A stretch of DNA of 64,000 bases from GCF_056712565.1 NZ_CM160072.1, one strand, 5' to 3'. Shown: positions 5,577-51,030, counted from the first letter of the stretch. The notes: generated from the letters alone by a model not told the origin. Translations and numbers: made by a program.

Positions 5577-6518
5577 TTAATTTATTTTTAATGAATGGTA
5601 ATCTCGTGAGTTGACCGAAGATTTGAGATAACTGCAATCATTAACCGACAGTATTGCCGCTAATAGGCGACATACCAGTGCCTGCATTTGCAGCAATATA
5701 TCGTTACCATATTGACTGTTGTTAACACTTGAGAAACCAAGCGGTTGACCAAAAAAAATAGCCTCATGAAAATTATCATTGCGGATGCCAGAAATGTTTT
5801 TTTTACCTGACACCCATGTGGGGATTGATAACCCATAAATTTTGCACATCCACTTTAATCGCTTGTAATGATTTGGCGGTTTTTTATCAGGAGCCTTGTC
5901 ATGCTCAGCCCACGACAAAGCAAAGCACCCATCAAGTGCCATGTAAAGATACTGGAATTTTTCAAAAGAAAGGTATTGTGGGTTTTGAGATAAGAATAGT
6001 GCATGCACCACTGCCGCAATTCTTTTGGGGGAGTGCGCATCCTTATGTTTGCCATTTATATAATTAAGAGCCAGTTCTATGACTTCTTTTTCAGAGCATC
6101 CAACGAGAATAAAGTCGGTTAACTTAGTGGGCTTGATAGTGGTTGCATCTAAAAAACCAGCGTCAGTGGTTGTCAATCTTATTCCCTTGAAAAAAGAAAG
6201 GCACCACACAATAAAGTTGAGAGTTTCTAACGAGGATGTATTTTTTAATTTTAGTGTGTGCGTTTTGGGCATACTGAATACTCGGTGACTATAAGGCATT
6301 GTGGATATGCCACCATTAAGGTTATATACATCTTGGTTTCCAGGGTATATCCAACCTTTCACAACGTTTTTATCATTATTAACACGCTCCACTTTCTCAT
6401 TGAGACCAGGTAAAGTAAGCAAAGAAAATTGTTCAGTCTCAATGTTAACTTCTACTGGATAGTATCCAAACTCCGACATAATCTCATTGGGTTGCTGTTC
6501 GTCAACTTCACCTTGCAT
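5577..6518 (-). CDS. hypothetical cargo protein, 313 aa, with RNxxxH motif (possible HEPN-like)
   Basis: AT-rich ORF unlike flanking phage DNA; motif GIRNDNFHEAIFF (R-x4-H) near C-terminus; no other recognisable domain. Confidence 0.6.
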   Translation of the reverse strand: MQGEVDEQQPNEIMSEFGYYPVEVNIETEQFSLLTLPGLNEKVERVNNDKNVVKGWIYPGNQDVYNLNGGISTMPYSHRVFSMPKTHTLKLKNTSSLETLNFIVWCLSFFKGIRLTTTDAGFLDATTIKPTKLTDFILVGCSEKEVIELALNYINGKHKDAHSPKRIAAVVHALFLSQNPQYLSFEKFQYLYMALDGCFALSWAEHDKAPDKKPPNHYKRLKWMCKIYGLSIPTWVSGKKNISGIRNDNFHEAIFFGQPLGFSSVNNSQYGNDILLQMQALVCRLLAAILSVNDCSYLKSSVNSRDYHSLKIN

Positions 6519-6541
6519 ATCTTTCTCCGTTCAAAAATAGG

Positions 6542-6557
6542 CTCGATAATTATCGAG
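6542..6557. promoter_or_regulatory. perfect 16-bp palindrome upstream of the 313-aa gene (candidate operator)
   Basis: CTCGATAATTATCGAG, 24-39 bp upstream of start codon at 6518 on reverse strand. Confidence 0.35.
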
Positions 6558-6755
6558 AGGCTATCATGTTTGGAAAGAACCAATGTCCGTAATTTTTGTA
6601 AATTTAAGGTGATTTATCAATAAATAAGCTGTGCATGCAACAGGTGCATGGTTCTGCATGCGCCGGGGTTACCCGTTTTGTACGTGCGCCGCAAGAGCTG
6701 GCGGGGATCCAGAGTGGTCATGCAACTGCATTAAAACCGCCCCATAAAGCGGGCA

Positions 6756-6774
6756 GGCGTGGCGGGGAAAGCAT
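6756..6774. other. cos: cos cohesive-end sequence, 186 type
   Basis: GGCGTGGCGGGGAAAGCAT equals the 19-nt 186 cohesive end as recalled (P2 GGCGAGGCGGGGAAAGCAC); in GC-rich non-coding stretch between A-side cargo and portal gene. Confidence 0.6.
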
Positions 6775-6993
6775 TGCGCGTCAGCAGTGATGCGTAATAA
6801 TAAAAATTATCCTCTGAGCGCGTCGTGATGGCGCTGTCGTGGTCGCTGCTGGTTCGTTGGTGGTCGGGTGTGTTCGTGCGCGTGAGACGCATCTGATGCG
6901 TGATGGTGGTGTGCATGGAAAAGCCACCAGGAGCAGCGGCTTTACAGGAGTGGCAGGATTCAAACTGCTAATTATGTTTCTACTATGATTAAA

Positions 6994-7998
6994 CTAATTT
7001 ACATGTATGTAGAGTTCACCGTCGCCAGACCAATCGGGACACTCTAAAACAAGCCCAAACTGCTTGAATATTTCATCAATGATTATTGTTATCTCCCGAA
7101 AATCACCAAAACCTGTAATGTGCTGGTCATTAAACTTCCCATAAAGATTCTGAAAAGCAATGCCTAATTCTGATAATTGATATCTTATCTTTGAGTTGGA
7201 TAGTGTAAGGGATAGCTTTGGATCGTATTCTTTAATATTGATGTTTAGAGAATGGACATAACCCATCGCATAAGCATAAGAGTTGATGATTAGCCTGATA
7301 CGTTTTTTTACTTCGAGATACATGTCATTCAGAGAAATATTACCGTACTTATAACCCCAGATGAGTTTTTCAATCTCGTCAGATACTTCATTTACAACAG
7401 TGTCAAGATTCTCTAAAAATAAATCGATAGTTTCTTGAGGGGCAGACCCCGAAGACATGTAATTAGCGAGATATTCAGACCATGCACGCGTGGCTGAGAT
7501 AAGAAGCGCGCTACCATACTCGTTGACTGTAAAGTTTTGGGCTAAGCATGTTAGTAAGTTTTTTTCATGTACGTGCACTAATTCATGGTGAATGCGATGG
7601 ATGACTGCGAGGTATCCTTCTTCTTTCAGTTTTAAGAAGCTACCATCATTGAAAAGCTCAACAAAAAAATCAATCGATAGCACAAGGGTATATTCTTCAC
7701 ATAGCCCATCATTGCCAATTTTTGTTACTAACTGCCCGACGGCTGCGCCCTGTTTACTATTGGTAAATGAACTAGGGGATTTGTGTTGGTAAGAGGATGT
7801 TACCTTTTGAAGAGCTTCACTGAAGTTATAGGAAACAATCACGCATTTTAATTTGGAGATATCAAGATTGAGATTTTTTGTTAAAGCTCGGATAGCTTCT
7901 AGTGTGAAATTACCGATATTATTTGCTTCTTGCTCAGTAGCGAAACCTTCGAGGGTTATTTTAAAATCAGTTTCCAAAATATTAATCTCCGCGCCCAT
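6994..7998 (-). CDS. hypothetical cargo protein, 334 aa, HExxH...E zinc-metallopeptidase-like motif
   Basis: AT-rich ORF between cos and portal gene; HELVH with Glu 22 residues after first His (gluzincin-like spacing). Confidence 0.6.
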   Translation of the reverse strand: MGAEINILETDFKITLEGFATEQEANNIGNFTLEAIRALTKNLNLDISKLKCVIVSYNFSEALQKVTSSYQHKSPSSFTNSKQGAAVGQLVTKIGNDGLCEEYTLVLSIDFFVELFNDGSFLKLKEEGYLAVIHRIHHELVHVHEKNLLTCLAQNFTVNEYGSALLISATRAWSEYLANYMSSGSAPQETIDLFLENLDTVVNEVSDEIEKLIWGYKYGNISLNDMYLEVKKRIRLIINSYAYAMGYVHSLNINIKEYDPKLSLTLSNSKIRYQLSELGIAFQNLYGKFNDQHITGFGDFREITIIIDEIFKQFGLVLECPDWSGDGELYIHVN

Positions 7999-15956: not shown

Positions 15957-16386
15957 CGCCGTGCCGCAGCTCCGAAATAATCCCGATATGCTGCGCCTTT
16001 TTGCCGACAACGGCCATACCGATTCCCGACTGGCGAGCTCGCTGTCGTTTGAAAAGGTGTACGTGCTTAACGTGGTGGTGACTGACTTCACCGGTGACCT
16101 TGATTTGATATTCGTGCCGGTGCAGGCGTGGCTGCGTGAACATCAGCCGGACATTATGACCACCGACGACGGGCGGGAAAAAGGATTCACCTGGATTATT
16201 GATATCAATAACGACGATTCGCTCGATATCAGTATCAGCCTGAGGCTCACCGAGCGCACACTCGTCAAAGAGGTCGACGGCGCGCTGCACGTCAGCTATG
16301 CCCCTGAGCCGCCACTGCCTGAGCCGGTGACGCGCCCGGTCGAGCTGTACGTTAACGGCGAACTGGTGAGTAAGTGGGATGAGTGA
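15910..16386 (+). CDS. R: tail completion protein (P2 gpR family)
   Basis: 158 aa, order R-S. Confidence 0.7.
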   Translation: MNSMQKHKSLRKALINAVPQLRNNPDMLRLFADNGHTDSRLASSLSFEKVYVLNVVVTDFTGDLDLIFVPVQAWLREHQPDIMTTDDGREKGFTWIIDINNDDSLDISISLRLTERTLVKEVDGALHVSYAPEPPLPEPVTRPVELYVNGELVSKWDE

Positions 16387-16825
16387 ATTAACCGCGCTGC
16401 AGGAACGCCTTGCCGGTCTGATTGCCAGCCTGTCACCGGCGGCACGTCGGCAAATGGCGGCTGAGATTGCGAAAAAGCTGCGTACCAGTCAGCAACAGCG
16501 TATCAAGCGCCAGCAGGCACCCGACGGCACCCCGTATGCGGCACGAAAGCGCCAGCCGGTGCGGAGCAAGAAAGGTCGGATTAAACGTGAAATGTTCGCC
16601 AAACTGCGCACCAGTCGCTTTATGAAAGCCAAAGGCAGCGACAGTGCGGCGGTGGTGGAGTTTACCGGCAAGGTGCAGCGCATGGCGCGGGTTCATCAGT
16701 ACGGCCTCAAAGACCGGCCAAACCGTAACAGCCGGGATGTGCAGTACGAGGCGCGCCCGTTGCTCGGTTTCAATAGTATAGATATGAGAATTATTGAGCG
16801 GTTAATAATTGGGGCTTTGGATTAA
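16379..16825 (+). CDS. S: tail completion / virion morphogenesis protein (P2 gpS family); last ~18 codons AT-rich
   Basis: 148 aa; composition switches to AT-rich at about 16770. Confidence 0.7.
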   Translation: MSELTALQERLAGLIASLSPAARRQMAAEIAKKLRTSQQQRIKRQQAPDGTPYAARKRQPVRSKKGRIKREMFAKLRTSRFMKAKGSDSAAVVEFTGKVQRMARVHQYGLKDRPNRNSRDVQYEARPLLGFNSIDMRIIERLIIGALD

Positions 16826-16853
16826 TTATGATCTAATATATTATTTTGTGATG

Positions 16854-16880
16854 AGGCTGGATAAACACCAGCCTTGATTT
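16854..16880. terminator. hairpin between convergent S and HIT-family gene (bidirectional terminator candidate)
   Basis: GGCTGG-ataaacac-CAGCC followed by T-rich run. Confidence 0.4.
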
Positions 16881-17524
16881 TATAGTTTGAAATCTGCGTA
16901 ATTATCAATAACCTCTAGAACACCGCTGATGTTGTTATCTCTGCGCCAATTCCAATTGCCATGTATCAAATTTGCATTAGAATAAAGATATCTAAGGAAC
17001 TGAGATGGTAAGAGTGGTTTGTTGCATAAAAATTCATCATAACTATTACTCATATACCACACATATCCATTTTTAATGTCAAAACTTAAATTCTCACCTT
17101 CAATTTTCTTAAAGTTAATTTCTTTATTTAGAGCATTTTCAAACTCTTGTGTATAATAAACACAGTGTATATGAGCGTGAGAAATGCACCCTCCTGAACG
17201 ATCTATATTTTCACCTGCTCCGCTTTCAAAGAAAATTAGAGATCTACCAGATTGGTGGATTATAAATTCATTAAGTTCTCGCAGAATCTCCTTGCCATTA
17301 CTCCGGGTATCTCGATCAAGAGCAGCAAAGGAGTTGATATGCCGCTTAGGAATCAGCATCACATGCGAATTATTTAGCGGGCCAATACTAGGTACAATTA
17401 GAAAATCATTTGTTTCTGCAATGATATTTTTCTTGTCATTTACGATTTCATCGTATCCTTTGATAAGGCTAATGCCATTTATTTCATCGCATATTCCACA
17501 GAACGAATTACAAGAATTATTCAC
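16880..17524 (-). CDS. HIT-family (histidine triad) protein with ~80-aa C-terminal extension; cargo gene
   Basis: CNSFCGICDE, NSHVMLIPKRHI and histidine triad HAHIHCV; AT-rich. Confidence 0.7.
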   Translation of the reverse strand: MNNSCNSFCGICDEINGISLIKGYDEIVNDKKNIIAETNDFLIVPSIGPLNNSHVMLIPKRHINSFAALDRDTRSNGKEILRELNEFIIHQSGRSLIFFESGAGENIDRSGGCISHAHIHCVYYTQEFENALNKEINFKKIEGENLSFDIKNGYVWYMSNSYDEFLCNKPLLPSQFLRYLYSNANLIHGNWNWRRDNNISGVLEVIDNYADFKL

Positions 17525-18089
17525 GTTTATTGTCTCCTGGTTTTTTAGGGAGCAATTTTTCAGCCCAAGATGCGAGTCGGCTTAGAACTAAGTCTGAAAA
17601 ATATCCTAATATAAAACAAATCGAGAATGCAATTTTGGTCTTACCATGCCCTTTAATGGAGGATACAAACGTATCCGGAGATAATATCGTATAAGAACAA
17701 AAAGCCACTAAAGCAGCTAAGAACGGAATAAAAATCCTCCAGTAGAACTTATGGGATTCCCAAGGGAAATTATACTGATTGTTTTTCCCTCTAGCAGTTA
17801 CTCTATAAAACCATTTTGCATTATACACCCACCCTCCAAAAAAACCACCAAGAATAGAAAACAAAGATATTTTATTATTATATGACAGCTCAAAAACAAA
17901 TTGAAAAAGAAAGGCGAGAATGCAACCTATTACAAAAAGAACTATTAAATAAGCAAATTCGAATTTTATTTGTTCACAATCGTTATTAAAATAAGGCACA
18001 ACCTCATCATCGCCTAAGGTTTTTTTTCTTTCAGTCATTTGCCAAACACCTTCATTTTTTACTGTGAGCCAGGGTAATTGCATATTCAA
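17517..18089 (-). CDS. small integral membrane protein (about 4 TM helices); cargo gene, overlaps HIT gene by 8 nt
   Basis: Hydrophobic stretches YLIVLFVIGCILAFLFQFVF, ISLFSILGGFFGGWVY, IFIPFLAALVAFCSYTIL, IAFSICFILGYFSDLVL; AT-rich. Confidence 0.65.
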   Translation of the reverse strand: MNMQLPWLTVKNEGVWQMTERKKTLGDDEVVPYFNNDCEQIKFEFAYLIVLFVIGCILAFLFQFVFELSYNNKISLFSILGGFFGGWVYNAKWFYRVTARGKNNQYNFPWESHKFYWRIFIPFLAALVAFCSYTILSPDTFVSSIKGHGKTKIAFSICFILGYFSDLVLSRLASWAEKLLPKKPGDNKRE

Positions 18090-20109: not shown

Positions 20110-20710
20110 CCGGCTATTACCCGTTGGCTCGTCGCCGCTGGAGGTCGCCGCCGCCGCTGCGTTCTCTGAGATTCAGCGCGTGCCGGTACCGCTGCGCACC
20201 CTGTGGAACTGGCGCACCTGCCCGGTAAAGCTGCTGCCGTATCTGGCGTGGGCGCTGTCGGTCGACAGGTGGGATGAGAAATGGCCGGAGGCGACAAAGC
20301 GCAGCGTCTGCGCGTCCTCGTTTTTCGTCCATCAGCACAAAGGCACCATCAGCGCATTGCGTCGGGTCGTCGAGCCGCTCGGCTTTCTGATTGAGGTGCG
20401 CGAGTGGTGGCAACTCGACGAGGAGCCAGGCACATTCCGCCTCGTTGTTGGCGTCCTCGACAGCGGCATCACTGACGAAATGTATCAGGAGCTTGAGCGC
20501 CTGATTGAAGACGCCAAACCGGCAAGTCGCCACCTGACGGGGCTGGCTATCAGCCTGAGTGCAACCGGCGAGCTGTATGTCGGCGCGGGATGCTACGCCG
20601 GCGACGCGCTGACCGTTTACCCCTACACCCCCGAGGAAATTGTCGTCGGCGGTGAATATTACCCGGCCTCGGCCATCCATTTGATTGATAACCTGAGAGT
20701 GAACGCATGA
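20102..20710 (+). CDS. I: tail/baseplate protein I (P2 gpI family)
   Basis: 202 aa, position after J. Confidence 0.7.
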   Translation: MNDRLLPVGSSPLEVAAAAAFSEIQRVPVPLRTLWNWRTCPVKLLPYLAWALSVDRWDEKWPEATKRSVCASSFFVHQHKGTISALRRVVEPLGFLIEVREWWQLDEEPGTFRLVVGVLDSGITDEMYQELERLIEDAKPASRHLTGLAISLSATGELYVGAGCYAGDALTVYPYTPEEIVVGGEYYPASAIHLIDNLRVNA

Positions 20711-21732
20711 CCGCAAAATATTTTGCCATTCTGACCAATCAGGGCGCGGCGCGGCTGGCGAACGCGGCGACACTCGGTACCAAGCTCAACCTGACGCAGA
20801 TGGCGGTCGGTGATGCGAATGGTACGCTGCCGACCCCTGACCCGACGCAGACGAAGCTCATTAACCAGAAGCGCATCGCGCCGCTGAACCTGCTGACCGT
20901 TGACCCGGCCAATACCAGCCAGATTATCGCGGAACAGATTATTCCCGAGAATGAGGGCGGTTTCTGGATCCGTGAGATTGGTCTCTATGATGATGCCGGT
21001 GTGCTTATTGCCGTGGCGAACTGCCCGGAAACCTACAAACCACAACTGCAGGAGGGAAGCGGCCGCACGCAGACCATTCGCATGATTCTGATTGTGTCGA
21101 GCACGTCGGCTATTACTCTGAAAATCGACCCGTCGGTCGTGCTGGCAACGCGCCAGTATGTCGACGATAAGGTTATTGAGGTGAAAGCCTATGCCGATAA
21201 TCTGCTGGCCGCACACCTCGCCGCCGCGAATCCTCATCCGCAGTACCTGCAAGTCGCCGACATAGCGAAATATACGCCAGTAGGTGTGCCACTTCCTTTC
21301 CCGTCAGCAACGCCGCCGACAGGCTGGCTGAAATGCAACGGCGCGGCATTTGATAAGGCGAAATATCCGGGGCTGGCTGCAGTTTTTCCGTCTGGTTATT
21401 TGCCTGATTTACGCGGTGAGTTTATTCGCTGCTGGGATGATGGGCGCGGTATTGATTCAGGCCGCATGTTACTGAGCGCGCAGACGGGAATGCTGGAAAG
21501 GCACCGACACTTCATCGTCGCGAATACTGCATATGAGGAAACCGATGAATGGGATATTGGTGTCATTTATCGTTCTACATACGTGCAGGGACGCGGGCTT
21601 GATGCATCTTCGACTGGAGGTAGCTTGATTCCTACCCCGACCCTTCACTCTAAAGGTCGTGTAGGTAATACCGGCGGAGCTGAAACACGACCGCGTAACA
21701 TCGCATTTAATTACATCGTGAGGGCGGCATAA
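20707..21732 (+). CDS. H: tail fibre protein (P2 gpH-like, short form)
   Basis: 341 aa; C-terminal receptor-binding part shares long identical stretches with the silent fibre segment at 48185-48679. Confidence 0.75.
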   Translation: MTAKYFAILTNQGAARLANAATLGTKLNLTQMAVGDANGTLPTPDPTQTKLINQKRIAPLNLLTVDPANTSQIIAEQIIPENEGGFWIREIGLYDDAGVLIAVANCPETYKPQLQEGSGRTQTIRMILIVSSTSAITLKIDPSVVLATRQYVDDKVIEVKAYADNLLAAHLAAANPHPQYLQVADIAKYTPVGVPLPFPSATPPTGWLKCNGAAFDKAKYPGLAAVFPSGYLPDLRGEFIRCWDDGRGIDSGRMLLSAQTGMLERHRHFIVANTAYEETDEWDIGVIYRSTYVQGRGLDASSTGGSLIPTPTLHSKGRVGNTGGAETRPRNIAFNYIVRAA

Positions 21733-22328
21733 TGGCGAAAGCAACATTGAATAAAATCGGTATTGCCACAAAAGCCGGTGATATGACTGTTTATAACTAC
21801 GACGGGGAAACGCGCGAGTTTCTGTCGACTTCCACCGAGTTTCTAGCGGTGGGCGTGGGGATTCCAGCCAACTCGTGTACTGATGCGCCGGTCGATGAGA
21901 AAGAAGGTTTTGCCATTTGCCGCACGGCCAGCCTTGATGGGTGGGATTATGTTGTCGACCACCGGGGCGAGACCGTGTATGACACCGAAACCGGTCAGCC
22001 TGTCGAGATTACCGGGCTTGGTGATTATCCTGATAATGTGACCACCATCGAACCGATGACGCCTTACGACCGCTGGAACGGTAGCGAATGGATTATGGAT
22101 GCGGATGCACAGAAAGGCGGTCAGGTTGCGACAGCAGAACAGAATAAAGCCTCATTGCTGGCCGAAGCGCAAAGCACAATCAGCCTGTGGCAGACTGAGC
22201 TGCAGCTCGACATCATCAGCGACGATGACAAAGCCAACCTGATTGCATGGATGAAATACATTCAGGCACTGAACGCGGTCGACACCTCAACAGCACCGGA
22301 TATCGAGTGGCCGGTAAAACCGGAATAA
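21732..22328 (+). CDS. G: tail fibre assembly protein (P2 gpG family)
   Basis: 198 aa; N-terminus ATKAGDMTVYNYDGETRE shared with the ORF at 48679-49281. Confidence 0.75.
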   Translation: MAKATLNKIGIATKAGDMTVYNYDGETREFLSTSTEFLAVGVGIPANSCTDAPVDEKEGFAICRTASLDGWDYVVDHRGETVYDTETGQPVEITGLGDYPDNVTTIEPMTPYDRWNGSEWIMDADAQKGGQVATAEQNKASLLAEAQSTISLWQTELQLDIISDDDKANLIAWMKYIQALNAVDTSTAPDIEWPVKPE

Positions 22329-41361: not shown

Positions 41362-41452
41362 TAGACTGGCCCCCTGAATCTCCAGACAACCAATATCACT
41401 TATTTAAGTGATAGTCTTAATACTAGTTTTTAGACTAGTCATTGGAGAGCAG

Positions 41453-41818
41453 ATGATTGATGTCTTAGGACCGGAGAAACGCAGACGGCGTACCACACAG
41501 GAAAAGATCGCAATTGTTCAGCAGAGCTTTGAACCAGGGATGACGGTCTCCCTCGTTGCCCGGCAACATGGTGTAGCAGCCAGCCAGTTATTTCTCTGGC
41601 GTAAGCAATACCAGGAAGGAAGTCTTACTGCTGTCGCCGCCGGAGAACAGGTTGTTCCTGCCTCTGAACTTGCTGCCGCCATGAAGCAGATTAAAGAACT
41701 CCAGCGCCTGCTCGGCAAGAAAACGATGGAAAATGAACTCCTCAAAGAAGCCGTTGAATATGGACGGGCAAAAAAGTGGATAGCGCACGCGCCCTTATTG
41801 CCCGGGGATGGGGAGTAA
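41453..41818 (+). CDS. insC: IS2 OrfA (InsC, HTH transposase part)
   Basis: [56 protein letters not shown]... Confidence 0.85.
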
Positions 41819-42681
41819 GCTTAGTCAGCCGTTGTCTCCGGGTGTCGCGTGCGCAGTTGCACGTCATTCTCAGACGAACCGATGACTGGATGGATGGCCG
41901 CCGCAGTCGTCACACTGATGATACGGATGTGCTTCTCCGTATACACCATGTTATCGGAGAGCTGCCCACGTATGGTTATCGTCGGGTATGGGCGCTGCTT
42001 CGCAGACAGGCAGAACTTGATGGTATGCCTGCGATCAATGCCAAACGTGTTTACCGGATCATGCGCCAGAATGCGCTGTTGCTTGAGCGAAAACCTGCTG
42101 TACCGCCATCGAAACGGGCACATACAGGCAGAGTGGCTGTGAAAGAAAGTAATCAGCGATGGTGCTCTGACGGGTTCGAGTTCCGCTGTGATAACGGAGA
42201 AAAACTGCGAGTCACGTTCGCGCTGGACTGCTGTGACCGTGAGGCACTGCACTGGGCGGTCACTACGGGCGGCTTCAACAGTGAAACAGTACAGGACGTC
42301 ATGCTGGGAGCGGTGGAACGCCGCTTCGGCAACGAGCTTCCGGCGTCTCCAGTAGAGTGGCTGACGGATAATGGTTCATGCTACCGGGCTAATGAAACAC
42401 GGCAGTTTGCCCGGATGTTGGGGCTTGAACCGAAGAGCACGGCGGTGCGGAGTCCGGAGAGTAACGGCATAGCAGAGAGCTTCGTGAAAACGATAAAGCG
42501 TGACTACATCAGTGTCATGCCCAAACCAGACGGGTTAACGGCAGCAAAGAACCTTGCAGAGGCGTTCGAGCATTATAACGAATGGCATCCGCATAGTGCA
42601 CTGGGTTATCGCTCGCCACGGGAATATCTACGGCAGCAAGCCAGTAATGGGTTAAGTGATAACAGGTGTCTGGAAATATAG
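41776..42681 (+). CDS. insD: IS2 OrfB (InsD, DDE transposase catalytic part)
   Basis: 301 aa overlapping orfA in -1 frame, typical IS3-family arrangement. Confidence 0.85.
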
Positions 42682-42692
42682 GGGCAAATCCA

Positions 42693-42839: not shown

Positions 42840-43628
42840 ATGACAAATCTACAACTGGAAGAAAGATTTAGGGCGCTTGAGAAAGATTACGATGCGCTCA
42901 TTTCCACAAAATATACTGCGCAGAACGTTCTCACTCACACTATGGAAACCTATGTTGATTCTGGTAAATATAAAAACTGGATCGCCAGAGTGAAAAAGTT
43001 AATAGAGGACAGCTACGGAAAAGAGTCTGATTATTACAATGACTTCAATACTGTAAACAGCAGGTGGTCTTCTAATTACAATACACTGATCAAAAGTTAT
43101 AAACCGTTGTTTGATGCGGCGAGAGATGATCTTGCGCACTCTGCTGTCAGTACTAATACTCCTCAAGAAGGTTCGCCGCTGAGCCTCGTACTTAATATTC
43201 TTAACAGGTTTCCGACCTTTGTTCGCCAGTTAAAGAGGCGGTACAACGGCCGTGCGCCGCTTGAAGTTAATGATGAGTATGACGTACAGGATTTGATTTA
43301 TGCACTGCTGACGCTTCATTTTAATGATATTAGGGCGGAAGAGTATACCCCCAGCTTTGCGGGCGCGGCCTCAAGACAGGACTTTCTTTTGAAAAAAGAG
43401 AAAATTGTGATAGAGGTGAAGAAAACCCGTGAATCTCTGGGAGCGGGTAAAGTTGGTGGAGAGTTGCTTATTGATATGGCGCGCTACCGCGCTCACCAAG
43501 ACTGCGATACGTTGATCTTGTTTGTATATGACCCGGATTGCTACATAAATAATCCTTTGGGCGTGAAAACCGATCTGGAATCTAAAGACGCGGAAGGAAA
43601 AGTGAAGGTTGTTATTGCGCAGTTCTGA
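42840..43628 (+). CDS. hypothetical protein with putative PD-(D/E)xK nuclease core in C-terminal half
   Basis: 262 aa; candidate motifs E-YDVQDLIYALL, RQDFLL and IVIEVKK (D...ExK); helical N-terminal half; motif-level call only. Confidence 0.55.
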   Translation: MTNLQLEERFRALEKDYDALISTKYTAQNVLTHTMETYVDSGKYKNWIARVKKLIEDSYGKESDYYNDFNTVNSRWSSNYNTLIKSYKPLFDAARDDLAHSAVSTNTPQEGSPLSLVLNILNRFPTFVRQLKRRYNGRAPLEVNDEYDVQDLIYALLTLHFNDIRAEEYTPSFAGAASRQDFLLKKEKIVIEVKKTRESLGAGKVGGELLIDMARYRAHQDCDTLILFVYDPDCYINNPLGVKTDLESKDAEGKVKVVIAQF

Positions 43629-43715
43629 CACGCTTAAGTGTCACCTTACAGGATTAGGTTTGCGGCCGTGCCAGCAGGACGAGCATGAAAAAGGCCGCTG
43701 GCACGGCCGGATTTG

Positions 43716-44009
43716 TCATCTTTGCCAGGTCAAATCAAAATCTACGTGAAAATCCGCAGGCTTAAGCTCGCAACTGCCACCACGCCCAATTAACGACGTT
43801 ATGTTTACAACGTTTGAACCTGTTGAGATGGCAAGTTGAGTGTCATCTGTAAACGTGATGATTAGCATTTCAGTCTGATGAACCTGTACTCCAGTTTTCT
43901 GAAAACCAATCTGGACAGATTTCACCGTTTTCCCAACCATTTCACGGGCTTGATTGATAGAGTAATTAGCTTCAACTTGTAGGTCATTCCTGAACTTGGG
44001 TAGTGTCAT
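43716..44009 (-). CDS. hypothetical small protein (97 aa), downstream of GIY-YIG gene on same strand
   Basis: ORF convergent with 42840-43628; 12-bp inverted repeat GGCCGTGCCAGC/GCTGGCACGGCC at 43664-43708 between them. Confidence 0.45.
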   Translation of the reverse strand: MTLPKFRNDLQVEANYSINQAREMVGKTVKSVQIGFQKTGVQVHQTEMLIITFTDDTQLAISTGSNVVNITSLIGRGGSCELKPADFHVDFDLTWQR

Positions 44010-44219
44010 TTTACATCCTCTTTAGTGAAGTTTTCGCTATTTAAATCAGCAGCATTCCTTTTAAATCACTGGCATGTCAGCAGTGGATAGTCTGAGTGTA
44101 ACGTCCAGTGAGGGGAATAAATATTGGTCAGACTTTGCACAAAAGAGCCAACTATCGCGGGCTCTCTCTCATCATGTGCGAAAATTGACCACAATATGAA
44201 ATCCAGTTCCATTCCGAAA

Positions 44220-45044
<825 letters not shown>

Positions 45045-45140
45045 TCAATTGACAACTTATAATCCCTACTAGTTAGCATTATGATTTCCAGAGTGAGGAA
45101 TATAAAAATCTCTGTTTCTGGCACATAACAGCCCTTAAGA

Positions 45141-45200
45141 TCGTAGCTCGCCATCATGGGGTGTCGGGGGGCGGAGGTTCAAATCCTCTCGTGCCGACCA
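45141..45200 (+). other. tRNA-Pro 3' fragment (about 60 nt, anticodon-stem to CCA end), att-like remnant, not a complete tRNA
   Basis: catggggtgtcggggggcggaggttcaaatcctctcgtgccgacca matches recalled proL 3' 46 nt with one mismatch; 5' acceptor/D-arm region diverged. Confidence 0.6.
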
Positions 45201-45213
45201 AAAATCCCTTAAG

Positions 45214-45241
45214 AACCAGCCTATTATGGCTGGTTTTTTTA
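45214..45241 (+). terminator. intrinsic terminator following the tRNA-Pro fragment
   Basis: AACCAGCC-tattat-GGCTGGTT followed by TTTTTTT. Confidence 0.6.
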
Positions 45242-45441
45242 TGATTGTTTTTTATGCGGAGAAATACCGGGGAATAATTGGGGTAAAACACCTTTAGGCT
45301 ATTCACTTAGCCTACCACCATCAAAATCTTTCCGAATGTATCCATCTCTTTTTTCTTATGCAGCTAAAACGAAGTCTTGATACTGTTTATTTACACAGAT
45401 AAGAATAATACTGTCTACAAACGCAGTACAAAAGAAGTGTT

Positions 45442-45620
45442 ATGCGTATTGAGATCTCCATAGCCAAAGACAAAATGACCAAATGCCAAACGGCGCTGTG
45501 GACGCGTTAAAGGAAGAATTAACCCAACACATTGGCAAGCGTTATGACGATGTGGAGATGATCGTAAAAGCCACCAGCAACGATAGTTTTTCAGTTAGAC
45601 ATACTGCAGATAAAGATTGA
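45442..45620 (+). pseudogene. DinI-like small gene with apparent frameshift (two overlapping short frames)
   Basis: [14 protein letters not shown] (frame 1, stop 45508-45510) continues in another frame as [37 protein letters not shown]; resembles DinI N-terminus from memory. Confidence 0.35.
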
Positions 45621-46044
45621 GCTAAAACTTTCGTTCAGGAAACTCTGAATGATACCTGAGAGTCTACTGAAGAGTTGTTTGTTCACTAGTTAGCACGTAG
45701 GAAATCATTCAATACTCGCACTATCGGAAGTTCACCAGCCAGTCGTAGCACGTCCTTGCAAACGACGTGCCTACGGTTTCAATCACCTCTCACCATCAAT
45801 TCTATCAATAATAATTAAACAGCGCCTAGACAAAATAAATAACAACAAGTCAACAACCTCGACAGGATGCCGATGGGATGATGAAGAGATAAGAAAGAAT
45901 AACCAGTAAAGCCCTAAAACGTCAGCGTTCAGACGCGTTTTTTACTTAATCGGTAACAAATACGTTGTATCATAGCAAAATAAAATGATTGTTCTAAATC
46001 AGATTAACTCCTCACTTTTGTACAATGTCGCTTACAGGTATACC

Positions 46045-47934
46045 ATGAAATCCGAGACGCTAACTGTCCAACAACTTTTTCAAGACCGCCGACAATACTG
46101 TGTTCCATTCTATCAACGTGCCTATGTATGGACTCAGCAAGACCAGTGGTCAGCTCTACTGGAGGATATCCTAGAGAAAGTACAATCCCGGCTCTCGGGT
46201 ACAAAACCAACTCCCCATTTCCTTGGTGCGGTTGTACTGGAACCTCAATCAAAAAAAGGATTATTAGGTGTAGATTCCATACATATTATTGATGGTCAGC
46301 AACGATTGACCACTCTTCAATATGTTCTGGCATCCATCCGATTAGCATTACGTGCTACGGATCTTTCCAGCTTAGAGGCTCTCATTTCGCCTTGCCTGAA
46401 AAACTCAAACGAAGACACAATGCGAAATAAAGAAGTAGAACGCTTCAAACTGTGGCCAACTTTTCGGGATCAAACTCATTTTATTCAAAGTTTTAATGTT
46501 GAAAATATTGACGATCTCCGGGACGTATTCTCTGATAGTTTCACGCAGCATGGTACGTTGCGTAAGCATTTTAATCACCCGCCATCACTAGAAGCATTAT
46601 GTTTTTTTACTGAAGCCTTTATAAAATGGATTAAAATAGAAAACCACTCACCACAAGAAAATGCTGTAGCTCTAATTGAGGCTGTCTTAACAGATCTGAA
46701 ACTGGTAAGCATATTTCTCGAAGCTGAAGATGATGCCCAAATAATTTTTGAAACATTAAATGGGCGAGGGGCGGAACTTCATGCTACGGATCTTATTCGC
46801 AACTATATCTTTATGTGCGCTGAGCATGAAAATATTAATGCTATTGAATTATATGAAAATGAGTGGAAGAGCTTTGAAGATAAATACTGGTCGGAAAAAC
46901 AACGCCGTGGACGTATTAATAAACCACGCATGGAGTGGCTAGTACATGCGACATTGCAATCAGAAAGGCAACGTGAAATTGATCTGTCTCGCCTTTACAA
47001 TGAGTATCGTGATTATGTAAGTAAGGACTTGTCTTCACAACGAGCAGATCTGCAAGTAAAGCGCCTCAAACAATATGCATCACAATATAAAGAATTGGTT
47101 GATGGTTTTGGCACAACCCCCATCTCACACTTTGGATATCGCATCGCAGACTATGATGTGACGACACTTTATCCGCTTGCTTTGTTCATTTCGATAGCTA
47201 ACATCGCTGATGATGAGAAAGCAGCCATGTATAATGATCTTGTCTCCTACGTAGTACGAAGAGCCGTATGTGGCCTGACGCCAAAGAATTACAACAATGT
47301 ATTTATGAATGTATTGCGGCACTTGGCTAAAACGGAAATTTCCAGTGTTGAGTTACGTAATATCCTCAATAACTTAAATGGCGAAGCCTCACGTTGGCCT
47401 GGTGACTCAGAATTTCTCAACGCTTGCATCAATGCTCCACTTTATCCTGGCAGGCTCGACGCACCGAAAATGCGCTCAATGTTAACGGAACTTGAAAGAG
47501 AACTTTGTCGCCAAGTAAAGACAGAAAAGCCTGATGTTCCAAATCTTTCTAATCTCGATATCGATCATCTTATGCCTCAAAGTTGGTATTCCTGTTGGCC
47601 TCTCGAAAATGGTCGTATGGTGACAAATTCAGATGCTACGGTATTGAACCAAATTGTTCTGTCTGGAACCGATCTTACCCCTGAACAGCTACTGGTAAGG
47701 AAACGGCAACAAGCGATATCTACTTTGGGAAATCTAACTTTGCTTAACCTTAGCGTAAACCGTTCTGTTCAGAATGCTGTATTTCTGAAAAAACGTGATG
47801 CTCTCATCGTCCACACCAATCTACGACTGAACATTCCACTTATAGTTAAGGATAAATGGGATGAGGATGAAATCCTGGAGCGGGGTAAAAAGTTGGGGGA
47901 AATTGCATTGAAAGTATGGCCAAAACACGATTAA
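46045..47934 (+). CDS. GmrSD-family type IV (modification-dependent) restriction endonuclease-like protein (DUF262 + DUF1524/HNH)
   Basis: N-terminal YCVPFYQRAYVW and DGQQR (DUF262/ParB-like); C-terminal DIDHLMPQSW (His-Me/HNH-like); start taken at ATG 46045. Confidence 0.7.
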   Translation: MKSETLTVQQLFQDRRQYCVPFYQRAYVWTQQDQWSALLEDILEKVQSRLSGTKPTPHFLGAVVLEPQSKKGLLGVDSIHIIDGQQRLTTLQYVLASIRLALRATDLSSLEALISPCLKNSNEDTMRNKEVERFKLWPTFRDQTHFIQSFNVENIDDLRDVFSDSFTQHGTLRKHFNHPPSLEALCFFTEAFIKWIKIENHSPQENAVALIEAVLTDLKLVSIFLEAEDDAQIIFETLNGRGAELHATDLIRNYIFMCAEHENINAIELYENEWKSFEDKYWSEKQRRGRINKPRMEWLVHATLQSERQREIDLSRLYNEYRDYVSKDLSSQRADLQVKRLKQYASQYKELVDGFGTTPISHFGYRIADYDVTTLYPLALFISIANIADDEKAAMYNDLVSYVVRRAVCGLTPKNYNNVFMNVLRHLAKTEISSVELRNILNNLNGEASRWPGDSEFLNACINAPLYPGRLDAPKMRSMLTELERELCRQVKTEKPDVPNLSNLDIDHLMPQSWYSCWPLENGRMVTNSDATVLNQIVLSGTDLTPEQLLVRKRQQAISTLGNLTLLNLSVNRSVQNAVFLKKRDALIVHTNLRLNIPLIVKDKWDEDEILERGKKLGEIALKVWPKHD

Positions 47935-48029: not shown

Positions 48030-48158
48030 CTAGGTCTCGGACTTTGTACCGCTTATCTTGTCTTCAAAAATCAGCTCGCATCCTGCACAGTTCAGCGCAT
48101 TACGTTGTAGATCTGTGTTCTGGTCATTTGTTGACACACGTACATAGCCAATAAGCAT
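48030..48158 (-). pseudogene. pin: truncated serine DNA invertase gene (Pin/Gin family), N-terminal 42 codons only
   Basis: MLIGYVRVSTNDQNTDLQRNALNCAGCELIFEDKISGTKSET then TAG; matches recalled Pin/Gin N-terminus incl. catalytic Ser region; RBS GGGAGA upstream. Confidence 0.7.
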
Positions 48159-48184: not shown

Positions 48185-48679
48185 ATGATGCCATTTGCTC
48201 GTTATTTCTGCATTTTCATAAACGTTGGTTTGGGAGAAGGCTCTGCATTACCTGTTGGTGTGCCTGTTCCATGGCCTTCAGCCACACCGCCAACAGGCTG
48301 GCTGAAATGCAACGGTGCGGCTTTTTCTGCTGAAGAATACCCGGAACTGGCAAAGGCTTATCCGACAAATAAATTGCCTGATTTACGTGGTGAGTTTATT
48401 CGTGGCTGGGATGATGGGCGCGGCGTTGATTCAAGGCGTGCGGTGCTGTCAACACAAGAGCCAACTGTAGGTACTTTTTATGTGGAGCTAGCTATCATCT
48501 CGGGAACTTTGAGCGGCTCAGGTGCTAAATTTACCGATTCAGTAGGGATTGGATCAACCAGTAGTAACATTACCGTTAGCAACGGTAATGACCAGTCCGT
48601 GTCGGGTACAGTGGCCGTTAACCCCGTCGATACCCGTCCACGCAACATTGCATTTAACTATATCGTGAGAGCAGCATAA
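48185..48679 (+). CDS. silent alternative tail-fibre C-terminal (variable) segment inside invertible region
   Basis: PSATPPTGWLKCNGAAF...TRPRNIAFNYIVRAA shared with P2-family H C-terminus (21280-21730); no own N-terminal domain. Confidence 0.6.
   Translation: MMPFARYFCIFINVGLGEGSALPVGVPVPWPSATPPTGWLKCNGAAFSAEEYPELAKAYPTNKLPDLRGEFIRGWDDGRGVDSRRAVLSTQEPTVGTFYVELAIISGTLSGSGAKFTDSVGIGSTSSNITVSNGNDQSVSGTVAVNPVDTRPRNIAFNYIVRAA
48213..48238. repeat. gix-like inversion crossover site (left boundary of invertible tail-fibre segment)
   Basis: TTTTCATAAACG-TT-GGTTTGGGAGAA; 15-bp core TTGGTTTGGGAGAAG is exact inverted repeat of 50139-50153; half-site resembles Gin/Pin site TTATCCAAAACC. Confidence 0.55.
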
Positions 48680-49281
48680 TGGATAAAGCAATATTAAATA
48701 GTGGACTTGTTGCTACAAAGGCAGGGGATATTACCGTTTATAACTATGATGGTGAAACTCGGGAATATATTTCCACTTCAAGTGAATATCTTGCCGTTGG
48801 TGTTGGTATCCCGGCATATTCCTGTCTGGATGCACCAGGTATACATAAGGCGGGTTATGCTATCTGTCGTTCTGTGAATTTAAATTCATGGGAATATGTG
48901 CCAGACCATCGCGGTGAAATCGTCTATAACACCGAAACGGGAGAATCAAAACAAATCACAGCACCGGGTGATTACCCCGAAAATACAACCACTATTGCCC
49001 CATTAACGCCATACGATAAATGGGATGGTGAGAAATGGGTGACCGATACTGAGGCACAGCATAGCGCCGCAGTAGACGCGGCAGAAGCACAGCGTCAGTC
49101 ACTGATTGATGCTGCAATGGCTTCCATCGGTCTGATTCAGCTGAAATTACAGGCCGGACGGAAGCTGATGCAGGCAGAAACAACCCGGCTTAACGCTGTG
49201 CTGGATTACATTGACGCGGTGACGGCAACAAATACCAGCACAGCGCCGGATGTCATCTGGCCTGAACTGCCGGAGGCGTAG
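48679..49281 (+). CDS. tail fibre assembly protein (alternative copy, inside invertible segment)
   Basis: N-terminus ATKAGDITVYNYDGETRE near-identical to gpG-like protein at 21732. Confidence 0.65.
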   Translation: MDKAILNSGLVATKAGDITVYNYDGETREYISTSSEYLAVGVGIPAYSCLDAPGIHKAGYAICRSVNLNSWEYVPDHRGEIVYNTETGESKQITAPGDYPENTTTIAPLTPYDKWDGEKWVTDTEAQHSAAVDAAEAQRQSLIDAAMASIGLIQLKLQAGRKLMQAETTRLNAVLDYIDAVTATNTSTAPDVIWPELPEA

Positions 49282-49696
49282 GCCATTCAATATCTGGCGC
49301 ACAGGAAGTATCGACCAGTTCCAGTGCGTCCAGATAATCCAGCCACGAATTATATTGCGCCAGTTCCTCGCCTTTCAGACGACCAATAGCAGCTTTGCCA
49401 GGCCACTGATGGGTATTGATGTAGGTATTGACTTCTGAAACCAAAGATATTTTTTTCATTTCAGCCGTCAACACCTCATCCTCTTTTGAAGGGGGTGGGG
49501 AATTAATCCATACTGGCCGTCCTGAACTGTCAGCGCCAATTTCTTTCCCTTCTGGATGCAGACCAAGAAATTGCTCATATGTTTCTCTGGTAATTTCAAT
49601 AACATCATCAGGAAGCGTTCCCGCATCCTCATATTCTGGAAACAATTCTTGCAGATAAAAACTTTTACTTCCGGGTGAAAAGAATACTGAGTTCAT
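49253..49696 (-). CDS. tail fibre assembly protein (expressed orientation)
   Basis: 147 aa with C-terminal ...LDALELVDTSCAPDIEWPTPP typical Tfa ending. Confidence 0.65.
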   Translation of the reverse strand: MNSVFFSPGSKSFYLQELFPEYEDAGTLPDDVIEITRETYEQFLGLHPEGKEIGADSSGRPVWINSPPPSKEDEVLTAEMKKISLVSEVNTYINTHQWPGKAAIGRLKGEELAQYNSWLDYLDALELVDTSCAPDIEWPTPPAVQAR

Positions 49697-49698
49697 TA

Positions 49699-50442
49699 TT
49701 ACCGTCCAATGATTAACGCTGAGACGCTGGTATCTGAAGGAAAGGCTGCATTCAGTGGTTTGTCGACTTTGAACACAATCGTATTATTCCCCCTGACAGC
49801 GGCAAAAGAACAAACCGCCGTCGCGTATGAACCTGTAATATTACTGGATACACCACCATAAGCTGTTGTTGATACCAGAGGGATAACGCCCAGCACCTTA
49901 TTAGGAAATACAAAGGGCAATGTGGCTGTGGCAATATAAGACTTATTAGAACCTGTGATGGCATAAGCATTATCAGTCATTCCATTCATCGCCACTGGGC
50001 CGCTTATACTTACAGTAACCATCTGAATGATTAGCCCGTCAGGTTGACGAATCACAAAATTTCCATTGCCACCAGTAACCGTCCAGAAAGACATATCAGG
50101 GATTTGGTTTTCCCCGTTGCCCACATTCCGTTTTGCCGCTTCTCCCAAACCAAGGTTTTCGAGAGCCGTTTTCACCGTGCCGTCCGATTTGATATCGCTA
50201 AACGGATTCTTGCGGCTTAACAGCAGCGCACGAAGCGCGGTAAGCAGCTGGTCGTGCCGCGCCTTCTCCAGACTGGCACCGGATGCCTCCACCACGCTGC
50301 AGAGTTCTTCCTGCAACATGTCAAAGTAGTCATCATCCAGATCGGTGGCAGGCGTGCCTGTCTGGGGGTTACCACGGGTAAAACCGTTCTTACCCGCGCC
50401 GAACTTATCCTTCTGCGCGGTTTTCGTGTCTATACGATGCAT
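49699..50442 (-). CDS. tail fibre protein (constant N-terminal part + current variable C-terminal part)
   Basis: 247 aa; gix-like site lies inside the gene at codons around [10 protein letters not shown]. Confidence 0.65.
50140..50165. repeat. gix-like inversion crossover site (right boundary, inside tail-fibre gene)
   Basis: TTCTCCCAAACC-AA-GGTTTTCGAGAG. Confidence 0.55.
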
Positions 50443-50445
50443 GGA

Positions 50446-51030
50446 TTACTCCGGATATTTAAAAATTACGTAGGTATGCGAAGGGCAGAGTTTGTTAAGC
50501 ACACATTCGACGACGGTGTCGCCCCAGATACGCAGCGCGGAATCACAGGGATCGCCACATGTCATCCAGGTGCTGTTGGTGGCGGCTGGCATGTTGACCT
50601 GCCAGTAATACCGCCATTCCGGCGCATTCACCGCGTCAGTACAGGCCGATGAGCAGGTGAACGTGCTTTTGTCGTATCGCGTGATGGTGGCGTCTGGTCT
50701 GCCCAGGGCAGCAAGCTGTGCAAGGTAAAAATCCTCATTGATGCCGCCCGCCAGGTTAACCTTCGCATCCAGTCGTTGCTGACGCTGGCGAAGGGTCTGT
50801 GTTCCTGCGGGAATACATTCATCCGGCAGGCCGCACAGACGCTCCCAGCGATTTATCAGTTCGGTGGTGGTGCGCGGATCCAGCTCCCGCATCAGGGCAT
50901 CCGCACGCTGATGAACGCGGGTTAATGACTGTGCCGCACCGGCAATCGCCGGATCGCTGGCTGACCACGCCGGACCGGGCGGCAGCAGTGCCGACAACAG
51001 ACGGATGTAATCATCGTTTGTCACGCCCAT
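50446..51030 (-). CDS. Mu gp48-like tail protein (DUF2313-like)
   Basis: 194 aa between baseplate J and tail fibre genes. Confidence 0.55.

Follow-up and report, generated by a model that had tools for sequence, protein, structure and literature searches.

Homologous tail-fibre tips and Tfa chaperones encoded by two co-resident prophages of Escherichia coli

Results and Discussion

The Question and the Two Prophages

Does the tail fibre gene of a P2-family prophage carry the same receptor-binding module as a silent fibre segment of another prophage residing in the same chromosome, and has this module been exchanged between the two? Both were proposed in a preliminary description of the analyzed region (a 64,000-nt stretch of NZ_CM160072.1 from the assembly GCF_056712565.1, hereafter called the window), in which the two loci were additionally indicated as a potential substrate for homologous recombination. 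Our analysis makes it very probable that the two loci derive from a single old and widely distributed tail-fibre-tip module and that they represent different lineages of a conserved frame, carry unrelated insertions and retain identical segments due to selection, with no recent transfer involved.

The window is a part of an E. coli chromosome and is 99.99% identical to the corresponding region of strain SF-468 across approximately 62 kb. Prophage 1 (roughly window positions 700–29100), whose end adjoins rplS, belongs to the P2 family and shows the gene order V-W-J-I-H-G-FI, usual for phages of this type. Four cargo ORFs of this prophage were checked with PADLOC and Pfam, which gave a weak HIT-domain match and nothing else. 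Prophage 2 is located beyond ssrA, on the minus strand, and combines a head of the HK97 type with a Mu-type baseplate and a fibre region of the e14 type; the baseplate genes and the constant part of the fibre gene exhibit 95% nucleotide (nt) identity with jayE-ymfQ-stfP of e14. This prophage is defective, as its baseplate J gene is frameshifted and its invertase gene is shortened. The two fibre loci are separated by rplS, trmD, rimM, rpsP, ffh, grpE, nadK, smpB, and ssrA. At the edge of the ssrA island, direct repeats and tRNA fragments were sought, and only ssrA itself, with no repeats, was found.

The features of both fibre loci are summarized in Table 1. The H protein of prophage 1 is annotated in RefSeq as “phage tail protein” and its gene is placed after that of gpI. 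Amino acids 1–150 (PF12571) constitute the baseplate-attachment/shaft part, while the tip begins at residue 191, with the Collar domain (PF07484) at residues 193–240 (residues 25–72 in the silent tip). In both loci the start codon of the tfa gene (G in prophage 1, the gene of the 200-aa Tfa in prophage 2) overlaps the stop codon of the preceding fibre gene or segment by one base. The 247-aa fibre of prophage 2 shows a weak match to PF21882, and the part of its gene encoding the N-terminus shares 95% nt identity with stfP of e14. No further collar-type tip was detected by a tblastn scan of the window.

Table 1. Features of the two fibre loci (positions are those of the window).
Feature	Position	Strand	Characteristics
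Tail fibre gene H	20707..21732	+	341 aa; PF12571 (E 8.6e-62); Collar PF07484 (E 7.3e-13)
H tip, N-terminal part of the collar	21277..21462	+	62 codons; conserved frame, counterpart of 48251-48436
H tip, variable insertion	21463..21681	+	73 codons; H-x-H motif LERHRHF
H, last 16 codons	21682..21729	+	ETRPRNIAFNYIVRAA; returning strand of the collar domain
Assembly gene G (Tfa)	21732..22328	+	198 aa; PF02413 (E 1.2e-38); phrog_105
Pin-type serine invertase remnant	48036..48158	-	residues 1-41 of 184, then stop
Left crossover site, pix-type	48220..48239	+	AAACGTTGGTTTGGGAGAAG; encodes GLGEG motif; inverted repeat
Silent alternative fibre tip, StfE-like	48251..48679	+	within ORF 48185-48679; PF07484 (E 1e-15)
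Silent tip, collar	48251..48436	+	
Silent tip, insertion	48437..48628	+	
Silent tip, last strand	48629..48676	+	
Tfa of the silent tip, TfaE-like	48679..49281	+	200 aa; PF02413 (E 4.4e-30)
Tfa of the currently joined tip	49253..49696	-	147 aa; PF02413 (E 5.9e-28); phrog_188
Fibre gene of prophage 2	49699..50442	-	247 aa; constant part and non-collar tip (Gp53-like_C)
Right crossover site	50139..50158	-	inverted repeat, pattern search and inversion breakpoint

Similarity of the H/G Locus and the Silent Locus

At the protein level the similarity between the loci is extensive. In the BLASTP comparisons, residues 191–341 of H and 23–164 of the silent tip were identical at 74 out of 157 positions (47%; E = 1e-41), and G and the 200-aa Tfa at 109 out of 199 (55%; E = 4e-79). 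Runs of 17, 10, 6, and 15 identical amino acids are common to both loci, and every peptide string originally quoted as shared was found in both of them; the reported similarity is real. The “long identical stretches” mentioned there, though, exist in the peptides and not in the DNA, for which blastn distinguished two blocks, i.e., 77.6% identity over 183 nt (21277–21459 vs. 48251–48433) and 66.4% over 432 nt (21682–22112 vs. 48629–49059), and where the longest exact match comprises 23 nt and the next one 19 nt.

The similarity is unevenly distributed along the module. Codon alignment of the N-terminal parts of the collars revealed 46 identical residues out of 62 (74%) and 143 identical nucleotides out of 186. 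Between the middle segments of the two tips only 13 of the 58 aligned columns were identical (22%, with gaps), and the nt identity of the H middle amounts to 30–49%. The last 16 codons of the fibre again encode nearly the same peptide in both loci (15/16 residues identical, the final 15 residues of the fibre being the same in both tips), while their third positions agree at only 6 of 15. In the case of the Tfa proteins, residues 1–120 of G and of its 200-aa counterpart are 66% identical and the remainder 38%.

Anatomy of the Tips

Both tips could be aligned (phmmer) to the T4 long tail fibre protein gp37 (PDB 2XGF) through their N-terminal part and their last approximately 24 residues, with E-values of 2.3e-18 for the H tip and 3.9e-17 for the silent tip; the last strand of H is aligned with NIAFNYIVRLA at the gp37 C-terminus. 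In gp37, the collar domain D10 is built of residues 811–881 and 1010–1026, the needle domain D11 is inserted into D10, and it is this needle that bears the receptor-binding tip (PMC6957217). As both tips map in this way onto D10, the two conserved blocks are recognized as the halves of a single collar. The middle of the tips, which is not shared, then presumably corresponds to the gp37 needle, although it is considerably shorter (64–73 residues vs. 128 residues in T4). The insertion of H may be regarded as the presumed equivalent of D11 and the receptor-contacting part of the protein, and its HxH motif (LERHRHF) is aligned with KAHSH, the first iron-binding motif of gp37. Whereas H keeps one of the HxH motifs known from gp37, the 64-codon insertion of the silent tip has none of them and may fold differently. 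Another difference concerns the chaperones, which are gp38 and gp57A in T4 (PMC6957217) and proteins of the Tfa type in the loci analyzed here. It is also worth mentioning that the C-terminal strand RPRNIAFNYIVRA, together with a variable insertion, recurs in the tips of HK97, P2-like phages, EtG, e14, and L007 (a prophage related to prophage 2 but intact).

We propose that the module consists of three parts: (i) a collar homologous to gp37 D10, formed by approximately 62–70 starting residues and the last approximately 16 residues (TRPRNIAFNYIVRAA), (ii) a variable insertion between the collar halves, which, judging from the homology to gp37, would form the distal, receptor-contacting needle, and (iii) a translationally coupled Tfa, acting as a putative assembly chaperone. 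From the same homology we infer that the insertion is the receptor determinant. Since the insertions of the two resident tips are unrelated, these tips most likely recognize different receptors. The notion of a “shared receptor-binding module” is therefore not supported, because the loci have the collar frame and the type of chaperone in common and differ in the inserted segment. For the annotation of fibre genes and for phage engineering this means that peptide identity within the collar or the last strand does not reveal whether two fibres have the same receptor specificity.

Tfa Proteins and Possible Cross-Talk between the Prophages

As summarized from the work on phage Mu, the variable N-domain of TfaMu binds the fibre, while its conserved C-domain trimerises (PMC9608196). 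The Tfa proteins of the window have the same modular organization as TfaMu (gpU; PDB 5YVQ). The C-terminal 68 aa of G align to TfaMu (E = 2e-7), whereas neither the N-domain of G nor that of the 200-aa Tfa gave a sequence match to TfaMu. The search of PDB with the 200-aa Tfa yielded no match at E ≤ 0.01. The third protein, i.e., the 147-aa Tfa of the currently joined tip, is 31–38% identical to G and the 200-aa Tfa within its C-terminal 80 aa, and its N-domain is unrelated to theirs, so that only the C-domain is common to all three. The domain roles established for Mu fit this pattern of identity.

These features are of importance for another possibility, namely that each Tfa also folds the tip of the other prophage, which would result in mixed particles or tailocin-like structures. 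Such functional cross-talk is compatible with the common, ancient origin of both modules, and it could be facilitated by the 66% identity of the Tfa N-domains, i.e., the fibre-binding part in Mu (PMC9608196), and by the identity of the last 15 residues of the fibres. We nevertheless consider it unlikely, because the insertions, which are the segments needing chaperone-assisted folding, are unrelated, and because in the defective prophage 2 (frameshifted J, shortened invertase) the fibre may never be made.

Recombination between the Resident Copies

In the orientation present in the window, the two copies are direct repeats located 27 kb apart and diverged by 22–34%. The minimal efficient processing segment (MEPS) amounts to 31–34 bp for RecA and 23–27 bp for Red-beta, and Rad52-type recombinases are effective up to approximately 17% divergence (PMC3945230). 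Compared with these values, the resident copies are very unlikely to constitute a working substrate for recombination or gene conversion at an appreciable rate. The 23-nt and 19-nt exact matches lie within the 183-nt block of 78% identity, the longer of them meets the lower limit for Red-beta, and the population does contain cases of cassette replacement inside a conserved frame (see below); however, 23 nt is less than RecA requires and the observed divergence clearly exceeds that tolerated by Rad52-type enzymes. Moreover, the direct repeats flank rplS, trmD, rimM, rpsP, ffh, grpE, and nadK. A crossover between them would lead to the loss of genes on which the viability of K-12 depends.

The population data point in the same direction. 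A chimeric query composed of the N-terminus of H and the silent tip was found, at a query coverage of at least 80%, in none of the 5,426 complete E. coli genomes searched (among which the genome containing the window seems to be absent), and in genomes possessing this H the alignment of the chimera ended at the end of the collar. This H/G pair is present, at an identity of at least 99%, in seven genomes, none of which is among those listed with a 100% match to the junction of prophage 2 in the orientation observed in the window. What remains of the postulated recombination substrate is thus the 23-nt match, while its length below the RecA MEPS, the divergence of 22–34% and the lack of any H/silent-tip chimera in these genomes make the substrate a weak one. 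The two residents are too diverged for efficient partnering, and also for their recombination to be of importance for genome stability.

Age of the Relationship

To what extent the similarity is old can be judged from the synonymous sites (Nei-Gojobori method). For the N-terminal part of the collar dS was 0.63, while the last 16 codons of the fibre and codons 1–120 of tfa gave pS values of 0.76 and 0.86, respectively, which indicates saturation in both cases. With synonymous sites saturated, the identical peptides must have been kept by selection over a long divergence. They are most probably preserved by purifying selection acting on the collar fold and on the chaperone-docking surface, and do not represent a trace of recent transfer. 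The collar is less diverged than tfa and, on its own, may have been exchanged or converted long ago.

Both modules have much closer relatives elsewhere. The H/G pair exhibits 81.7% nt identity to the corresponding genes of Erwinia phage EtG (73% aa identity for H and 81% for G), and G shows only 55–56% aa identity to the Tfa proteins of e14 and HK97. For the silent tip and its Tfa, relatives at 88–91% nt identity are found in P2-like, lambdoid (HK97 and HK106) and P1-like phages. The 200-aa Tfa shares 90.5% aa identity with TfaE of e14, the same value with the Tfa of KC618326 (a P2-like phage), and 88% with the Tfa of HK97. In KC618326, the entire cassette, including an invertase gene and both tfa genes, is localized between H and the sheath gene. 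As each module has its closer relatives elsewhere, two lineages of the frame are distinguished and the residents fall into different ones: H/G groups with EtG, and the silent tip with its Tfa groups with StfE/TfaE of e14, Stf/Tfa of HK97 and the P2-like phages containing invertible cassettes.

For these reasons, a recent direct exchange between the residents, or their acquisition of the module from one recent donor, is extremely improbable. Peptides identical over up to 17 aa, the same gene order and translational coupling in both loci, and the demonstrable mobility of the module family might suggest such an event, but they are outweighed by the nt identity of only 66–78% with no exact run longer than 23 nt, the saturation of synonymous sites both in tfa and at the very end of the fibre gene (16 codons), the unrelated centres of the tips and the closer relatives in EtG (81.7% nt) and in HK97, e14 and P2-like phages (88–91% nt). 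The reading of the similarity as a “direct sign” of exchange between the two prophages is consequently not supported. Chance or low sequence complexity can be dismissed altogether, as the alignments (E = 1e-41 and 4e-79) go far beyond a short random similarity and both protein pairs fall into the same Pfam and PHROG families.

The interpretation of both loci as copies of one old module therefore retains a substantial part of the initial view, i.e., that the two gene pairs are true homologues belonging to a fibre-tip and Tfa module that moves between unrelated phages. The arrangement is the one known from gpH/gpG of P2, S/U of Mu, S/U of P1, and Stf/Tfa of lambda, in all of which, as here, a collar-type C-terminus of the fibre is followed by a Caudo_TAP gene. 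The fibre-tip modules of P2, Mu, P1, and lambda were reportedly the subject of studies by Haggard-Ljungquist et al. and Sandmeier et al., both from 1992 and both referred to in PMC3945230 and PMC9594776. Mosaicism of collar tips and Tfa being already known, our finding mainly confirms the textbook picture of phage mosaicism. Among the P2-type fibres, the H protein analyzed here (341 aa) differs in size from H of KC618326 (499 aa) and is nearer to the fibre of the Eganvirus EtG mentioned above.

Replacement of the Middle Cassette

In the nucleotide alignment of five tips, a middle segment of approximately 220 nt falls to 30–45% identity in every pair. The same is visible when the silent tip is compared with stf of HK97, as the collars share 94–98% nt and the tfa genes mostly 79–96%, and the middles are unrelated. 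At E ≤ 1e-10, a protein search with the H tip retrieved 4,283 relatives. Among the 120 best ones listed, the majority are 72–80% identical over 97% of the query, the middle included, and many of these 120 are 256-aa fibres of the e14 type or silent forms of 158–172 aa. Relatives of the H insertion at 72–80% aa identity are present in the e14-type fibres of other E. coli.

One of these relatives was L007, in which the baseplate genes are 97.5% nt identical to those of prophage 2, the J gene is intact and the invertase has 184 aa. Its collar is 100% nt identical to that of the silent tip, with an exact run of 164 nt, and its tfa is 82–100% identical to the tfa of the silent tip. Its middle, in contrast, is of the H type, with 55–72% nt identity to H and 33–57% to the silent tip. 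In L007, the middle cassette has thus been cleanly replaced while the surrounding frame is identical. A recombinant junction of the kind sought does therefore exist, but at the level of the middle cassette and not between the two residents. The H-type cassette of L007 is itself old relative to the H studied here, and prophage 1 was therefore not its donor. As the collar of L007 is fully identical to that of the silent tip and the middle differs, the middle cassette is the exchanged unit; the insertion of 64–73 codons is what differs between tips and what is replaced between otherwise identical frames. Within the population, exchange involves either the middle cassette, swapped between frames that match closely, or the whole tip with its Tfa, and we infer that the frames serve as the recombination anchors.

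The Invertible P Segment of Prophage 2

The segment 48220–50158 of prophage 2 contains two opposed sets of a tip and a Tfa, i.e., the silent tip with the 200-aa Tfa on the plus strand and, on the minus strand, the other tip with the 147-aa Tfa. The segment is bounded by two crossover sites of 20 nt, which lie in inverted orientation within the reading frame of the fibre and are 95% complementary; the pattern search gave two matches vs. 0.01 expected. Their core, TTGGTTTGGGAGAAG, is the same as that of the P-segment repeats of e14 (PMC12529663). This distinguishes prophage 2 from the H gene of prophage 1, with which no invertase and no crossover site are associated: the pattern search for pix-like sites in or near H/G returned the P-segment pair alone, and scanning of the whole window for serine invertases revealed none next to H/G.

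SF-468 carries the segment in the opposite orientation, with breakpoints exactly at the repeats, while the flanks, including the shortened invertase gene, are 99.99–100% identical. The inversion performed in silico kept the reading frame, and the resulting intact fusion of 247 aa is identical to the annotated fibre of SF-468. Because inversion fuses the collar-type tip in frame, the module that is “silent” in the window is the joined module in sister strains. The junction characteristic of the orientation present in the window was found at 100% identity in 21 listed genomes (e.g., IHE3034 and APEC O1), and that of the opposite orientation, likewise at 100%, in all 40 listed genomes (e.g., UTI89, S88, NU14, SF-468, and MS15052).

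The invertase gene adjacent to the segment is not of full length, as only codons 1–41 of 184 remain. The remnant, labelled in RefSeq as “recombinase family protein, incomplete”, matches residues 1–44 of PinE at 95% (tblastn) and was assigned to PF00239 and phrog_8275 (“DNA invertase”). It was the only invertase-like match, and no second serine invertase was found within the window. In K-12, the P segment of e14 is inverted in trans by a heterologous invertase, PinQ (PMC12529663). By analogy, inversion in trans by another invertase probably applies to the segment of prophage 2 too. In the Gin, Cin, and Hin systems the invertase gene contains a Fis-dependent enhancer within its 5′ part. In prophage 2, the retained 5′ part of this gene is 94.7% identical to that of e14.

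A more speculative scenario may be outlined, which as a whole we regard as a long shot. The P segment at ssrA in an ST95-like lineage, deprived of its own invertase, would still be flipped by one encoded elsewhere in the genome (compare PinQ acting on e14), and the flipping would alternate StfE-like and StfE2-like short ORFs next to a defence island; the recombinase might then switch a barrier to phage adsorption and not the host range of a virion, and the collar tip with its Tfa might cross-assemble with the fibre of the co-resident P2-family prophage.

The closest known system is the P segment of e14 (stfP-tfaP/tfaE-stfE, pinE). Besides the similarity of the baseplate genes and of the constant part of the fibre (95% nt), tfaE is 89% nt identical to its counterpart in prophage 2, and the stfE collar and the 5′ end of pinE are 94.7% nt identical. 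The layout is also the same, with two opposed sets of tip and Tfa by pin and a type IV restriction gene beyond. The differences concern the insertions of both tips (the StfE tip is 62% identical overall and the other tip is unmatched), the pin gene, which in prophage 2, unlike in e14, is cut to 41 codons, and the integration site, which is ssrA in the case of prophage 2 and icd in the case of e14. Prophage 2 additionally keeps head and tail genes that were lost from e14. The type IV restriction gene is mcrA in e14, whereas the one localized beyond pin in prophage 2 is of the GmrSD type. Together with PD-T4-3, the latter belongs to the defence island next to the P segment of prophage 2.

Inversion of the P-type segment

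Comparison of the window with its counterpart in strain SF-468 revealed that the invertible P-type segment of the second prophage is reversed in the latter (16059-17997 in the compared SF-468 stretch), with inversion breakpoints falling exactly at the 20-nt repeats and flanking DNA 99.99-100% identical to the window. Either orientation was also found in many ST95-like genomes, with junctions 100% identical. As both orientations occur at this level of junction identity and the segment's own invertase is cut down to 41 codons in the window, these data suggest that an invertase whose gene lies elsewhere inverts the segment in trans.

The coding sequence of the LGLGEGSALPVGVP motif spans the pix crossover site in the second prophage. 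The same motif is encoded immediately ahead of the collar, i.e., the conserved fibre-tip domain, in stf of HK97 (2021-2986 in the compared stretch) and in H of the P2-like phage KC618326 (1448-2947 in its own compared stretch), and it is absent from H of the P2-family prophage of the window. Among the annotations of the HK97 stretch around stf, there is no invertase.

State and gene content of the prophages

Baseplate gene J is broken into two ORFs in the second prophage, whereas an intact relative of this prophage (L007) carries it whole (352 aa); the SF-468 gene is flagged by RefSeq as frameshifted. On this evidence, the second prophage is likely to be defective.

In e14, mcrA occupies the place beyond pinE; the equivalent place in the window holds a defence-type island with a GmrSD-family enzyme, flanked by ssrA and the truncated pin gene. 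Downstream of ssrA, the window differs from SF-468 by a 1331-bp insertion with InsC/InsD-like ORFs of IS2 type, which, judging from its size and ORF sequence, we take to be IS2.

The P2-family prophage holds cargo ORFs, none of which had a PADLOC match; searches against Pfam gave weak HIT-family matches and nothing else.

Features of the two prophages and adjacent regions (window positions)
Feature	Position	Strand	Remarks
P-type segment	48220-50158
Baseplate J	51021-52078	-	ORFs of 79 and 279 aa
Insertion	41362-42692
Defence-type island	42840-47934
DpnII/MboI REase-domain protein	42840-43628		defence-type island
PD-T4-3 GIY-YIG protein	44220-45026	-	defence-type island
Type IV restriction enzyme (GmrSD family)	45985-47934		defence-type island; full-length match to mREase_IV in PADLOC
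P2-family cargo ORFs	~5577-7998 and ~16880-17999	-
Hypothetical proteins of 313 and 334 aa			P2-family prophage, upstream of portal gene
HIT-domain protein and 160-aa ORF			P2-family prophage, between tail-completion genes and baseplate V
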